Assembly (NCBI GenBank): GCA_964016885.1
Contig: OZ024740.1
Location: 215,388,001-215,452,000, forward strand
DNA from: Eledone cirrhosa
Lineage: Eukaryota
DNA length: 64,000 nucleotides
Reading direction: 5' to 3'
Shown: piece after piece, positions 14,576 through 49,368 of the stretch
Position numbering within the stretch: the stretch's first letter is position 1
Layout of the letters: each line of letters starts with the position of its first letter
Notes under the pieces: generated by a model
Told to the model about the DNA's origin: nothing
The model's database searches: none
Seen by the model: the letters and a program-made list of their open reading frames with translations, nothing else
Program-made: the position numbers and the translations under genes

Positions 14576-15140
14576 GGAAAAGAATGAAACGAAATTTCAT
14601 TTCTCACTCTTAGTACGGCTGATACTTAAATACAAGTATGTATACGTACATACATATATGTATACAGACGTTCAGTAGTATGTATATATACATACATGCA
14701 CACATATATATATGTACGTATGGGTTTACCGAACATTTATTATAATATTCGGTTTGTTTGTAAACAAACAGCCCGAATTACGCCGTACAGTGTTCGGCAA
14801 CCATCGTCGCCCTTTTGTTCAACACTGACAAAGGAACGATGAACTAGTTTCAAGCTTATTAGCTATCGTCAGCATCGTATACCTTCCTGTCAGATTATTG
14901 AACGTTTGAAAGTATATACTTTCCTTATGCATATTAACGGCTGAGCAGCCTAATTTGCATATCAGTTTGTCAGTGTTGAACAAAAGGGCGACGATGGTTG
15001 CCGAACACTGTACGGCGTAATTCGGGCTGTTTGTTTACAAATAAACCGAACATTATAATAAATGTGTCCATGTATGTATATAAATATATACTACTGTATG
15101 TCTGTATACATATATGTATGTACGTATACATACTTGTATA
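14576..15140 (-). mobile_element. Retrozyme-like non-coding HHR element (430-nt family) with 5' inversion
   Basis: Homologous to 48905-49368; 14733-14832 is inverted at 14966-15064; octamer ATTTGCAT at 14953-14960. Confidence 0.75.
14837..14877 (-). ncRNA. Type I minimal hammerhead ribozyme
   Basis: cgatg-CTGACGA-tagctaataagctt-GAAA-ctagtt-catcg: 5-bp stem I, palindromic stem III ACTAGT, GUU triplet. Confidence 0.88.
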
Positions 15141-15638
15141 TATATATATACGACCGACCCCATTTCACGCGCACGCGCGCTCTGCCGAATACCTCAGATA
15201 TTCAAAACAACAAACAGCGAAAGACGCGTTCCGGACTTGTCCGACAGACAACCTTTTCCCCCACCTCGGAAAAAACCCAGTTGATGGATGTGAATCAGAA
15301 ATATATAGGGACTATTAAATCTCTCCCAAGGTAACTCTCTCTTGTGTTGTTATTTTAATTTTTATCCTTTATACTCTTCCCTTCATTCTACACATCTCAC
15401 ACATCTTATACACACCACGCATCTCAACGTACACCCACTTACATCTCTCTCTCCACCACCGGACCTTGTTACCCGGAGATTTACCCATTTGCATTGTCGA
15501 GGCTTCCAAACGACTTAAAGATATTTACTTATTGTTCCACAATGCTTCAAGCAAACTTCAATACTCTCATATATATATATATATATGAAAGACGTAAAAT
15601 GAGAAAATTTTAAAATTAACTTATTTACTAAAATTTTC

Positions 15639-15720
15639 ACTCCAACTAATTAGTTTCTGTAAGGGAATAAATATAGTTACGCAACGCAACTATAGAGAAA
15701 TCCTTACGTCATCAGGGAGT
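15639..15720 (-). ncRNA. Type I hammerhead ribozyme (inverted copy)
   Basis: Reverse complement of the HHR at 16499-16580, with an intact core. Confidence 0.85.
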
Positions 15721-15966
15721 CTATTCTCAGCTAAGTTCCCAGGAAATGCGCGGACACTAGGAACCCATATAAAAATAATAATTCAGTGGATGGAAAAAAG
15801 CGAGCGGGGACTAGATTCCAGGGCACTGAAAAAATTCACTGCCTACTTGGTCAGTGGCAAATTCTAAAGAATCAATCACGTGACACTGGGGTTAATCAGT
15901 GAGTATTATTATTTTTATATGGGTTCCTAGTGTCCGCGCATTGCCTGGGAACTTAGCTGAGAATAG

Positions 15967-16048
15967 ACTCCCTGATGACGTAAGGATTTCTCTATAGTTG
16001 CGTTGCGTAACTATATTTATTCCTTTACAGAAACTAATTAGTTGGAGT
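15967..16048 (+). ncRNA. Type I hammerhead ribozyme
   Basis: actcc-CTGATGA-cgtaagga..(internal hairpin tatagttgcg/cgtaactata)..tcctttaca-GAAA-ctaattagtt-ggagt; predicted cleavage after 16043. Confidence 0.88.
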
Positions 16049-16498
16049 GAACATTTTAGTAAGTAAGTTAATTTTTAAATTTTCTTACTTTACGTTTTTC
16101 ATATAATTGTTCTGCATCCCCTTGCATAGAACCACAAAGGTACTAAGACATAGCATATATATTTGCTAGCATGGGTATACATCTGTATGCATATGTTGGT
16201 AGATATACTAATTCTCTACATTTATCTCCAAATTATTTGTTGAGCAAAACTTGCCGAAATTTACTGCTATGGTTCATGGTAGTAGTTAGGCTCTTGTCTT
16301 ATCACCACTCCACTCCTCACTGATTAACCTCAGTGTCACGTGATTGATTCTTTAGAATTTTCCACTGACCAAGTAGGCAGTGAAAATTTTCAGTGCCCTG
16401 GAATCTAGTCCCCGCTCGCTTTTTTCCATCCACTGAATTATTATTTTTATATGGGTTCCTAGTGTCCGCGCATTGCCTGGGAACTTAGCTGAGAATAG

Positions 16499-16580
16499 AC
16501 TCCCTGATGACGTAAGGATTTCTCTATAGTTGCGTGGCGTAACTATATTTATTCCCTTACAGAAACTAATTAGTTGGAGT
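16499..16580 (+). ncRNA. Type I hammerhead ribozyme
   Basis: Same architecture: stem I actcc/ggagt, palindromic stem III ACTAATTAGT; predicted cleavage after 16575. Confidence 0.9.
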
Positions 16581-17139
16581 GAAAATTTTAGTAAGTTAAT
16601 TTTAAAATTTTCTTATTTTACGTCTTTCATATAATTGTTCTGCATCCCCTTGCATAGAACCACAAAGGTACTAAGACATAACATATATATTTTCTAGCAT
16701 GGGTATACATCTGTATACATATGTTGGTAGATATACTAATTCTTCTCTCTCTCTCTCTCTTTCTATATATATATATATATATATATATATATATATATAT
16801 ATATATATATATATATATATATATATATATATATATATATATATATATATATATATATATATATATATATATATATATATATATATATATATATATATAT
16901 ATATATATATATATATATATACATATATATATATATACATATATATATATACATATATATATATATATATATATATATATATATATATATAGGAAAAATA
17001 CTTTTTCCTATTTCCCACTCTACTACCCTAAGTATTGAGTACTCTGGTGCGTTATGGTCGATCTTGTTCCTTACCACAATTCCTTTGTTACATATATATA
17101 TATATATATATATATATATATATATATATATATATATAT

Positions 17140-47010: not shown

Positions 47011-47048
47011 ATCTTTTGATGAAGGGCTAGTGTCTGAAACGTTAAGAT
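47011..47048 (+). ncRNA. Minimal hammerhead motif (C3U variant)
   Basis: atctt-TTGATGA-agggctagtgtct-GAAA-cgtt-aagat. Confidence 0.65.
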
Positions 47049-47304
47049 TCTCTTCCTACTATTTCAAGCGTTAAACTAATATATTTCTTCCATGTACTGC
47101 GCCGTTTGTTTTGTGATTTCTGTTTACCTTTTACACCCACACACGTCCACACACACACACACATACGCACACAGACACAGACACACAGACACACAGACAC
47201 ACAGACATACACATACACATACACACACAGACACAGACACACACACACATAAATATACGGCATGCACACACGAACACATATATACGCGCGCTCACATACA
47301 CACA

Positions 47305-48330
47305 TAATTTTCACTTTATCTTTATTGTTCGTTATATTTTTGTTTTATCAAAGTTCTTTCGTCACACATTCTGTGACCTCCTCAATGATTATCTGTTTTA
47401 TGCCTCCTCTTTTCCCCGGTCTTAAACTTTTACTCCATCTTTCTTTGTTTTGTGGTGCATTTTTTTGTGTTCCCCGACTGCGCATGCGTTGCGCCTGCGT
47501 CTCTCTCTCTCTCTCTCTCTCTCTCTCTCTCTCTCTCTGTATGTGTTTTGGTGTTTTTCATGTCTAGGTGTGTTTTATGCGTGTGTGAGTTTGTATCATT
47601 TGCTGTTTTGCTGTCTGTGTCTGTTTTTTCTCTCTATTCTCTCTTCAGTCGTTAAGTTGCTGGCTGTTACTATTCCACTCGTGTTTTCTGTTCAGGCTAG
47701 GACTATCTTCTATTATGTGTGTGGCCTCCGTAATTTGTCTGTTGCGTCAGTTCTATGTGTTGATAAGATCCTTATTTCTATGTTATCTATTGAGCTCTCG
47801 TGTTCTAGTTTGGCATGTTGCTATATCACTGATGAGCTTTTTTCCTTCTTAAGTTCTCACCAATGTTCCTTTAATCTCTCTCCTATATAACGGGCTGTCT
47901 CTCCTATGTATATCGTTGTCTTGTTCCTGCATCGTCCCTCAGTACATCTTACACTATACACTACTTTTCTAGTTTTACAGTTTATCTGCAGGCTTACCTT
48001 AACGACTATACAGTTTCTATCAGTACAGGGGTTTCTCTAAAGGCGATTTTTTGGTAGCTCCTGGTTTTTCTACTACTTTAATTCTAAGGTTCATTTTTTC
48101 TAAAGCTCTTCTAAAGCGATAAGCTATTTCGCCTCTAGGGGTAGCATCGACGAACATAACACTCTGATATTTTTGGCTGTCATACCATGAGTTTGTTTTA
48201 CCTATCTTTTTCTTAGTCCTCTCTATGCTATTCCATGATTTGCTCTTGTATAATGGGTAAATCCCAGTCATATGATTCTCCATAATGGTTTTGAATTTAG
48301 CCATGGATCCTTCGTACTCCCTTATTAGTT
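47305..48330 (-). mobile_element. 5'-truncated Penelope-like element (Neptune-like by inference) with GIY-YIG remnant and 3' pLTR HHR
   Basis: SVMFVDATPRGEIA..IKVVEKPG, then after a frameshift KVVYSVRCTEGRC...IYIGETARYIGERLKEH. HHR-like motif at 47347-47389 (-), and a related, oppositely oriented motif at 48355-48396 (+). Confidence 0.85.
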
Positions 48331-48661
48331 ATTTGGCAGTTAATTTATTTGGCAATCAATGATGATGTTGCAGATGTGCGACGAAAGAACTTTGATAGAC
48401 TATATATATATATATATATATATATATATTTATATCTGTATTTTTAACCGCTGGTCAATCAATGATAAACATTGATTGCCACATAAATTAACTATGGAGA
48501 TATAAAAGATACAGAAACAAAACAGTGAGTGTGTTCTGTTATTATTTCTGGCAATATTATAACAATATGACTCTCCCCAAGTATAACTATATATATATAT
48601 ATATATTAGAAAGTGAGGTTTTTTTTACAAAATGAAAAATAACCGAGGTGTCCTACACGAG

Positions 48662-48890
48662 TGAAAGTATAAAGAAAAAAAAAGATGAAATCGAAAATGC
48701 AACTGGAGTCTTATTTTTTTTTTAAATATATATATTTATTTGGTTCCTTTACCGGTTTCGCAGTTCTTCTGCTTTTCAAAAGTAGTTGTTGAGATGGAGG
48801 GTCTGTGGTTTTTCGTGAGAAAAACCACAGACCCTCCATCTCAACTCTACTCCAGTTGCATTTTCGATTTCATCTTTTTTTCTTTATATA
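48662..48890 (-). mobile_element. Foldback pLTR fragment with U3/A8 hammerhead variant (48747-48782)
   Basis: Outer inverted repeat 48668-48709 / 48849-48889; inner hairpin gttgagatggagggtctgtggtttt/aaaaccacagaccctccatctcaac. Confidence 0.65.
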
Positions 48891-48904
48891 TATATATATA
48901 TATA

Positions 48905-49368
48905 TATAAGTATGTATACGTACATACATATATGTATATAGACGTACAGTAGTATGTATATATATATATATACATGCACACATATATATATGTACCTATG
49001 GATTCACCAAACATTTATCATAATGCTCGGTGTGTTTGTAAACAAACATCCCGAATTAAGCCGTACAGTGTCTAGCAACCATCGTTGCTCTTTTGTTCAA
49101 CGCTGACAAAGGAACGTTGTACTAGTTTCAAGCTTATTAGCTATGGTCAGCAACGTATACCTTCCTGCCAGATGATTGAACGTCTGTAAGTATATACTTT
49201 CCTTATGCATATTAACGGCCGAGCAGCCTAATTTGCATATCGAGTGAGTTAATCGGCCGGGCGCACCGAAAACGATAAACGGAAAAAATGAAACGAAATT
49301 TCATTTCTCACTCTTAGTACGGCTGTTATTTAAATATAAGTATGTATACGTTTCATTTTTTCCGTTTA
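48905..49368 (-). mobile_element. Retrozyme-like element, 430-nt period, HHR at 49115-49155 (core G8C)
   Basis: taagtatgtatacg at 48907 and 49337; permuted relative to 14576-14965; octamer at 49231; short terminal inversion 49351-49368. Confidence 0.78.

Follow-up and report, generated by a model that had tools for sequence, protein, structure and literature searches.

Newt satellite 2, as Coats is said to have reported in 1994, has an snRNA-type promoter made of octamer/PSE signals. This hammerhead repeat is transcribed by Pol II from an internal snRNA-type promoter and has a dimer-dependent ribozyme, according to the accessible part of a later paper (as cited in PMC2220036). Metazoan non-LTR retrozymes are described in two accounts as AT-rich, highly self-paired, non-coding tandem units of 150 to 450 nt with a type I hammerhead, present in thousands of copies and proposed to be moved by Penelope-like elements (PLEs) (PMC7229834, PMC7761336). 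The review among these accounts finds retrozymes apparently without promoters and assumes read-through transcription because none has been seen (PMC7761336). PLEs themselves form partial tandems with an inverted, 5'-truncated copy and a tail that results from two internal reverse transcriptase start sites, at AT targets (PMC8557442, PMC11167929), and the Drosophila Penelope promoter lacks a TATA box and has a DPE (PMC2377424). A preprint on vertebrates has already made the case, by homology, for retrozymes as non-autonomous PLEs; its main text, in the part available, mentions neither promoter, octamer, nor snRNA (bioRxiv 10.64898/2026.07.22.740005). Our literature search, which covered few subscription papers, found no earlier hammerhead retroelement with an octamer or proximal sequence element promoter.

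We analyzed 64,000 nucleotides of the Eledone cirrhosa genome (contig OZ024740.1, positions 215,388,001 to 215,452,000; here, the window). As a preliminary description of this DNA had indicated, three loci carry minus-strand hammerheads, with cores beginning at 14872, 43215, and 49150, together with octamers at 14953, 43282, 43348, and 49231. The repeat periods given there, 423 nt (43048 to 43471) and 430 nt (48905 to 49335), were also confirmed, and its hairpin motif common to the three loci is present in a loose form only. The single family that it proposed proved to be two barely alignable ones: family A (the 14.6k and 48.9k loci, 430 nt, 90% identical across 337 nt) and family B (the 43k locus, 423 nt), whose similarity to the family A loci is confined to two blocks, one of 46 nt (78%) and one of 25 nt holding the octamer (88%). 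The features are as follows.

14576..14963, minus strand: family A element, first arm, 388 nt, RNA sense on the minus strand; the 3' end is placed at the outer "tail" site adjoining (TA)n, and the 5' end lies a little upstream of the octamer.
14966..15140, plus strand: second arm of the 14.6k insertion, inverted and 5' truncated, with its end in (TA)n at the inner 3' site.
14722..14776, minus strand: twin hairpin, common to families A, B, and C.
14836..14878, minus strand: predicted type I hammerhead, family A, with minimal palindromic helix III and U-U at 10.1/11.1.
14912..14918, minus strand: TATA-like box, family A, 42 nt past the octamer start.
14927..14934, plus strand: second octamer-like site, inverted, one mismatch, forming a hairpin with the octamer at 14953..14960.
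14953..14960, minus strand: octamer, family A, 88 nt upstream of the ribozyme core; it lies in a 15-nt stretch that matches the host U6-class -77 element at 20.7 bits.
43047..43618, minus strand: family B element, comprising a 423-nt unit and 135 nt of another, which ends at the ribozyme cut site, with a short fold-back and (TA)n on both sides.
43177..43220, minus strand: predicted type I hammerhead, family B, core intact, GUC cut site, 4-bp helix III, A-A at 10.1/11.1.
43282..43289, minus strand: proximal octamer, family B, 17.3 bits, 74 nt from the ribozyme core.
43348..43355, minus strand: distal octamer, family B.
43424..43433, minus strand: T10 run in RNA sense, family B, at the outer fixed 3' end.
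48905..49348, minus strand: family A element, a full 430-nt unit plus ~14 nt, beginning in (TA)n at the inner 3' site.
49114..49156, minus strand: hammerhead, family A, with a G8C core change.
49190-49196, minus strand: TATA-like box of the 48.9k copy, following the octamer.
49231..49238, minus strand: octamer and U6-class element match, 20.7 bits.
49283..49288, minus strand: T6 run in RNA sense, forming the 3' arm of a hairpin next to the outer priming site.
49349..49368, plus strand: inverted stub, 20 nt, ending at the outer "tail" site.

These elements are non-LTR retrozymes, a known class, and what is new is a promoter that they likely carry themselves. The genome holds ~25,000 octamer-plus-hammerhead units and 26,488 exact family A hammerhead cores, and the copies form partial tandems; the earlier identification as retrozymes with multimeric copies is upheld. 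Units measure 420 to 480 nt. Tandem periods of 420 to 502 nt fit the size of non-coding retrozyme units except in subfamily A2, which exceeds 450 nt; no open reading frame of at least 120 aa occurs across the three loci, and the monomers are highly self-paired (circular MFE z = -6.2 and -6.5, 30 shuffles each). The order octamer, TATA-like box, ribozyme, hairpins, and U-rich hairpin is kept along the unit. Two additional families of octamer-bearing hammerheads are represented by two copies (family C) and three copies that are 70 to 77% identical (family D). Identification of the ribozymes draws on a sequence descriptor, predicted folding, and stem I variants that preserve pairing. Both family A ribozymes in the window depart from their family, in which most cut sites are GUA: the 14.6k copy has a GUU cut site, and the 48.9k copy is likely inactive, judging from its G8C change. 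The Rfam matches listed (150 of 190) included no hammerhead model and consisted only of microsatellite-driven miRNA noise below gathering scores, and a triple-ribozyme pattern search gave mostly noise, since control counts were as high as test counts. A simple repeat at 52 to 64 kb dominates repeat detection in the window. Contigs from four sequencing runs whose kind is unrecorded contain A and B variants; the thin coverage in runs X4 and X6 carries no weight in this analysis. In their hammerhead, unit type, AT-richness, self-pairing, and copy number, the elements resemble metazoan retrozymes; they differ in that most copies lie scattered as partial tandems that include inversions and in carrying a conserved octamer-TATA cassette that resembles host U6-class promoters.

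Insertion structure was examined in 60 loci, which show partial tandems, an inverted 5'-truncated arm, and (TA)n targets. Of 88 RNA 3' ends, 71 fall at two fixed sites ~57 nt apart, and 68 of 88 have TA-rich flanks. As read from the sequence, the two fixed 3' ends, (TA)n targets, and inverted arms are the Penelope-like "tail" signature. The 14.6k and 48.9k copies had been regarded as circular permutations of each other; the former is instead 388 nt plus an inverted arm (14966-15140) and not a full permuted monomer, and both begin at the two fixed priming sites rather than at arbitrary points, so that two fixed reverse transcription start sites explain the apparent permutation. Partial tandems, the inverted truncated copy, the two-site tail, (TA)n targets, and a hammerhead in the repeat are all held in common with PLEs, from which the elements differ in having no ORF and, in family A, a tail of ~57 nt rather than the 30 to 40 nt given for PLEs. 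The reverse transcriptase likely recognizes the twin hairpin at 14722..14776. The search for an autonomous partner was negative, hairpin-profile (HMM) matches outside families A, B, and C being unconvincing across 320 loci. Fragments of PLE-type endonuclease are common in the sampled loci. One five-unit array has an ABAB alternation (13 substitutions at lag 1, 0 at lag 2); clear ABAB occurs in just 1 of 10 arrays, and local duplication is a possible source. At 5' ends, the predicted start (3/88 versus 2.2 expected) showed no enrichment, and the cut site (0/88 versus 1.4 expected) offered little power.

The octamer had been taken for the snRNA distal element, a role that we reject for this host: the upstream regions of host U1 (7 loci) and U2 (3 loci) contain no exact octamer, and the distal element common to U1, U2, U6, and RNase P is a different motif, of the CCTCCCTT type, located between about -255 and -290. 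Here the octamer is proximal (-77), lying at -76 to -78 in five of six host U6-class promoters (U6 ×3, U6atac, and RNase MRP) inside a 13- to 15-nt element that is followed by a TATA box at +46 to +48. An snRNA-gene-like signal in the elements was borne out, in that their octamer sites match this U6-class element at 20.7 (A), 17.3 (B), and 19.9 (C) bits, compared with 13.0 to 17.7 for the host sites left out one at a time; one family D copy scores only 7.9 bits although it has the octamer. The family A site outscores all 1,185,263 background sites. Of the host promoter classes to be compared, U1/U2 gave no convincing PSE in family A (best 5.1 to 5.4 bits, chance level; host 3.4 to 16), while one B copy reached 11.1 bits and window B 5.5 to 5.8. 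Like newt satellite 2, the elements combine a hammerhead repeat with an internal snRNA-type promoter signal, but the match here is to the host U6-class proximal element plus TATA, with no clear U1/U2-type PSE; the cassette is also unlike the TATA-less DPE promoter of Drosophila Penelope.

Octamer matches in the window number 7 against 5.65 expected, and 30 of 100 shuffles reach 7. This count by itself is at chance level; the significance of the octamer comes from its position and its conservation across families. It is perfect in 52 of 60 ribozyme-anchored A units and lies 90 to 117 nt upstream of the ribozyme in C and D (roughly 80 to 120), with a TATA-like box at +38 to +45 in four of five copies. 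In many other B copies, the proximal octamer is 84 to 93 nt from the core, versus 74 nt in the window copy; these copies have ~18 extra nt, including the +45 TATA-like box. The octamer block gives the best local match between A and B, and in the upstream region C, too, matches A or B best there, although no C-versus-A/B match taken singly reaches significance in comparison with shuffles (p about 0.16 to 0.5). The proposed comparison of octamer and flanking conservation had a mixed outcome: four families with surroundings that can no longer be aligned retain the octamer in a comparable place and orientation, whereas within family A its conservation is not clearly higher than that of its surroundings (0.984 versus a median of 0.981). 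Variants shared within family A fall in the octamer in 0 of 8 positions versus 28% overall (P = 0.07, for variants from copies chosen in part by their octamer), and the family A TATA box has no excess conservation.

On these grounds, we favor, tentatively and at a little under an even chance, the reading that these are non-coding hammerhead repeats in Penelope-like insertions, likely copied by a PLE reverse transcriptase and likely transcribed from a unit-internal octamer-plus-TATA promoter. A POU factor would bind the octamer, as at host U6-class genes, and transcription, most likely by Pol II by analogy with newt satellite 2, would start ~10 to 25 nt upstream of the ribozyme core and pass the T-run into the next unit. 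Successive ribozymes would release unit-length RNA, in family A probably as dimers, that includes the promoter of the next unit, by which an upstream-type promoter would be inherited. Ligation would yield monomer or dimer circles, and a borrowed Penelope-like enzyme would nick (TA)n, start internally at one of two sites per strand, and roll round the circular template.

An alternative, unlikely yet serious, is that the cassette works as a genuine U6-type Pol III promoter, each unit being a small Pol III gene ending at the T-run, with the retrotransposed multimer or circle arising from rare read-through only. The best motif match is indeed to Pol III-class genes rather than U1/U2, the elements have the same 13- to 15-nt octamer element and then TATA as host type 3 promoters (U6, U6atac, and RNase MRP), A, B, and D all have the promoter first, then the ribozyme, then the T-run, and runs of T5 to T10 are host terminators. 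The spacing, however, is 1 to 10 nt below that of all five host genes: the gap from octamer to TATA is 42 in 56/56 scored family A units, 45 in 10/21 (B) and 1/2 (C), where TATA-like boxes are weak, and 38 to 43 in D, so that it differs among families and at 38 to 45 never reaches the host 46 to 48. The distal CCTCCCTT-type element is missing from A and B units. A terminator-length T-run also lies inside the copied RNA (T6-7 in 52/65 internal A units, T5 or longer in 25/28 B copies), yet the outer priming site of family A is 8 to 14 nt beyond it and arms extend to 2.9 kb. No pile-up was seen of copies that extend from the start or the cut site as far as the T-run.

Slightly less probable still, in our estimate, is that the octamer functions at the RNA level, either by forming a hairpin arm or by binding protein, with transcription by host read-through as the review proposes for retrozymes in general (PMC7761336). 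The octamer pairs with an inverted partial copy in A and C, and 5/88 5' ends lie at the base of the octamer hairpin. It is nevertheless retained even though A1, A2, and C have different partners for it to pair with, and family B has direct repeats at 33 nt instead of an inverted pair, two more octamer variants lying at ~43315-43330 between its two octamers. The flanks moreover match the host DNA element beyond the 8-mer, as just 4 of 56 background octamers do. That the octamer is a relic of an ancestral PLE pseudo-LTR or an enhancer-like site with no present role is improbable: antisense octamers lie 90 to 142 nt upstream in 3/20 copies of a PLE-type ribozyme family and the within-family conservation tests are weak, but 11 of 14 ribozyme clusters lack a sense site of their own and the position and strand are similar in four families with unalignable surroundings.

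If the favored reading of a unit-internal promoter holds, the octamer-TATA cassette likely lets the elements drive their own transcription. The question of retrozyme transcription becomes testable, with a defined cassette that is conserved in four families and matches five host promoters, and the fixed double 3' end gives these invertebrate-type retrozymes a mechanistic link to the mode of PLE priming demonstrated in vitro in 2024. The layout of the host U6 promoter is directly usable for guide RNA expression in this lineage. It is conceivable, if rather doubtful, that a retrozyme superfamily captured a gene-external host U6-class promoter and made it heritable through tandem geometry, ribozyme cutting, and PLE rolling copy, sometimes of a dimer circle. 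Were this true, the elements would parasitize PLEs much as SINEs do their partners, under the control of an upstream small-RNA promoter, and their host would be one with a proximal octamer in its own U6 promoter.

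Each of the three elements in the window contains a minus-strand hammerhead core, and the four octamers and the periods of 423 and 430 nt are present as in the preliminary description. The single family proposed there is instead two: the 14.6k and 48.9k copies, 90% identical across 337 nt, form family A, and the 43k copy (family B) shares with A only the twin-hairpin block and the octamer block. The loci are as follows.

14576-15140, minus-strand core at 14872: 14.6k copy, family A
43047-43618, minus-strand core at 43215: 43k copy, family B
48905-49368, minus-strand core at 49150: 48.9k copy, family A

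The offset starts of the two A copies, previously read as circular permutation, are real but are explained by two 3' sites, the outer one for the 14.6k copy and the inner one for the 48.9k copy. Octamers are at chance level in the window (7 versus 5.65 expected), and within family A they are not significantly more conserved than their flanks. Both A copies carry changes that would likely damage the ribozyme; the B copy, a single case, runs for 1.3 units and stops at the ribozyme cut site. Elsewhere in the window, at 656-845 and 915-1838, an inverted minimal hammerhead pair (core 739, plus strand) adjoins a Penelope-type GIY-YIG-like reading frame, and a second inverted pair lies at 33995/34234; neither family carries a sense octamer. 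The window also holds a broken LINE with RVT_1 and exonuclease/endonuclease/phosphatase domains (24606-27843, minus strand), related fragments at 6020-7495, and a 12-kb simple-repeat array of strong skew (52000-64000; GC ~0.73, AT ~-0.76).

The repeats of the window may point to an octopod. Across the 3.0-Gb assembly of this animal, we counted 24,869 exact matches to an octamer-gap-hammerhead pattern (reversed control, 0) and 26,488 to the family-A ribozyme by itself. The 60 loci that we examined are partial tandems in a (TA)n setting, often with a head-to-head inverted arm. To map ends, we took 100 family-A loci within the first 22 Mb of C1, using either the ribozyme or the 3' hairpin as anchor, and counted arms of at least 90 nt, leaving aside breaks at the end of the ruler. 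Of 88 distinct RNA-3' ends, 71 coincide with one of two sites ~57 nt apart, and the flanking sequence is TA-rich for 68 of the 88. Penelope-like elements (PLEs) are described as combining tandem-plus-inversion structure with a one-ended tail and a (TA)n bias (PMC8557442), and in vitro work showed this tail to be the stretch between two internal reverse transcriptase start sites (PMC11167929). The elements are very probably PLE-mobilized non-LTR retrozymes. The view that retrozymes are nonautonomous PLEs is already known: PMC7229834 proposed it, and a 2026 preprint (bioRxiv 10.64898/2026.07.22.740005) makes the case in vertebrates.

Family-A arms reach 2.9 kb. Among 10 arrays with at least three units, one (L277) shows exact ABAB alternation, and in two others a single base or the length alternates; this is consistent with rolling on a dimer circle and also with local duplication. 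Long satellite-like A arrays occur at G000:C1 51.77-51.79 Mb and 53.36 Mb (L311-L320), and one long A array has an apparent four-unit higher-order repeat of ~1,713 nt. More short twin-hairpin elements, retaining no ribozyme and possibly a fifth family, were seen at L345 (2900-3330) and L360.

The A hammerhead has a minimal palindromic helix III, a kind described as dimer dependent (PMC4209133), and the B hammerhead has a 4-bp helix III and GUC. One variable pair of A stem I is U-G, U-A, A-U or G-U, so that pairing is kept in most copies, and U-U in about five. Both ribozymes have a 10.1/11.1 mismatch; at several loci, several hammerhead families of this genome have U-U or A-A there, not the usual G-C. 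Monomer folds are far more stable than shuffles (z of -6.2 and -6.5).

The octamer had been taken for the distal snRNA element, which does not hold in this host. The promoters that we inspected are as follows.

L061-L063, L185, L189, L290, L073-L076, L145-L152: host small-RNA promoter loci

TATG(C/G)(A/T)AATNAG is found at -76 to -78, with TATA at -30, in U6 (three unrelated loci), U6atac and RNase MRP. U1 and U2 lack the octamer and have instead TCAGT at about -57 with an AT-rich box, making a second promoter class to which RNase P belongs, with an offset. RNase P lacks the octamer-type element, which is thus present in five of six promoters (excluding three further U6atac matches that look promoterless), and because it lies at -76 to -78 in U6-class genes and is missing from U1 and U2, it is proximal here, whereas in human snRNA genes it is distal (PMC9652321). 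A distal motif of the CCTCCCTT type, lying at -255 to -290, is common to most of these host genes. Two promoterless U6atac copies (L186, L187), possibly retrocopies, directly follow TA-rich repeats.

With a matrix built from the five host promoters, the A site scores 20.7 bits, more than any of 1,185,263 background sites, and the B site 17.3; leave-one-out scores of the host promoters are 13.0 to 17.7. The U1/U2-type PSE score in A is at chance level. The extended flanks are also those of the optimal Oct-1 site, so a common binding factor, rather than capture of a U6 promoter, may account for the match. Two further families carry the octamer: C (L004, L093), with a canonical ribozyme, a 3' hairpin as in A and B and the octamer at -98/-99, and D (L179, L360, L325; 70 to 77% identity), in which the ribozyme is B-like and the octamer lies at about -90 to -117. 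Of these loci, L179 was picked with an octamer pattern, and fixed-interval samples yielded L093, L360 and L325. No single alignment of the C octamer with those of A or B is significant. Eleven of 14 ribozyme clusters lack their own sense octamer site. An additional 400 kb held 20 ribozyme matches, and the 17 of them outside families A and D had no sense octamer either. Antisense octamer sites lie 90 to 142 nt upstream of a PLE-type ribozyme at L124, L130, L181 and L037; at L124 and L130 this ribozyme is 1 to 1.5 kb downstream of a GIY-YIG-like fragment.

A TATA-like box follows the octamer start at +42 in all 56 scored A units, at +45 in 10 of 21 B units and one of two C copies, and at +38 to +43 in D, always closer than the host spacing of 46 to 48. 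The octamer is perfect in 52 of 60 A units chosen independently of it; subfamily A3 deviates from the host AG flank. We consider it fairly likely that the octamer-TATA block is a DNA-level promoter, Pol II and Pol III readings taken together. Most internal A units (52 of 65) contain a T6-7 run, of terminator length in this host, and the outer priming site lies beyond it; Pol III therefore could not be the routine source of the template. A polymerase that disregards the run is the more likely reader of the cassette. The 5' ends show no enrichment at the predicted start (3/88) or the ribozyme cut site (0/88); relative to a uniform expectation, which the sampling only approximates, there is an excess at the U-rich hairpin (13/88 versus 3.4) and just 5' of the octamer (5/88 versus 1.0).

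According to a review, retrozymes seem to be without promoters (PMC7761336); known exceptions are a plant LTR retrozyme and, as cited in PMC2220036, newt satellite 2 and a schistosome repeat. Our literature search, whose reach excluded most subscription journals, found no report of an octamer or U6-class cassette in retrozymes. For the host, the two-class promoter layout is unlike the human one and is useful for guide-RNA vectors.
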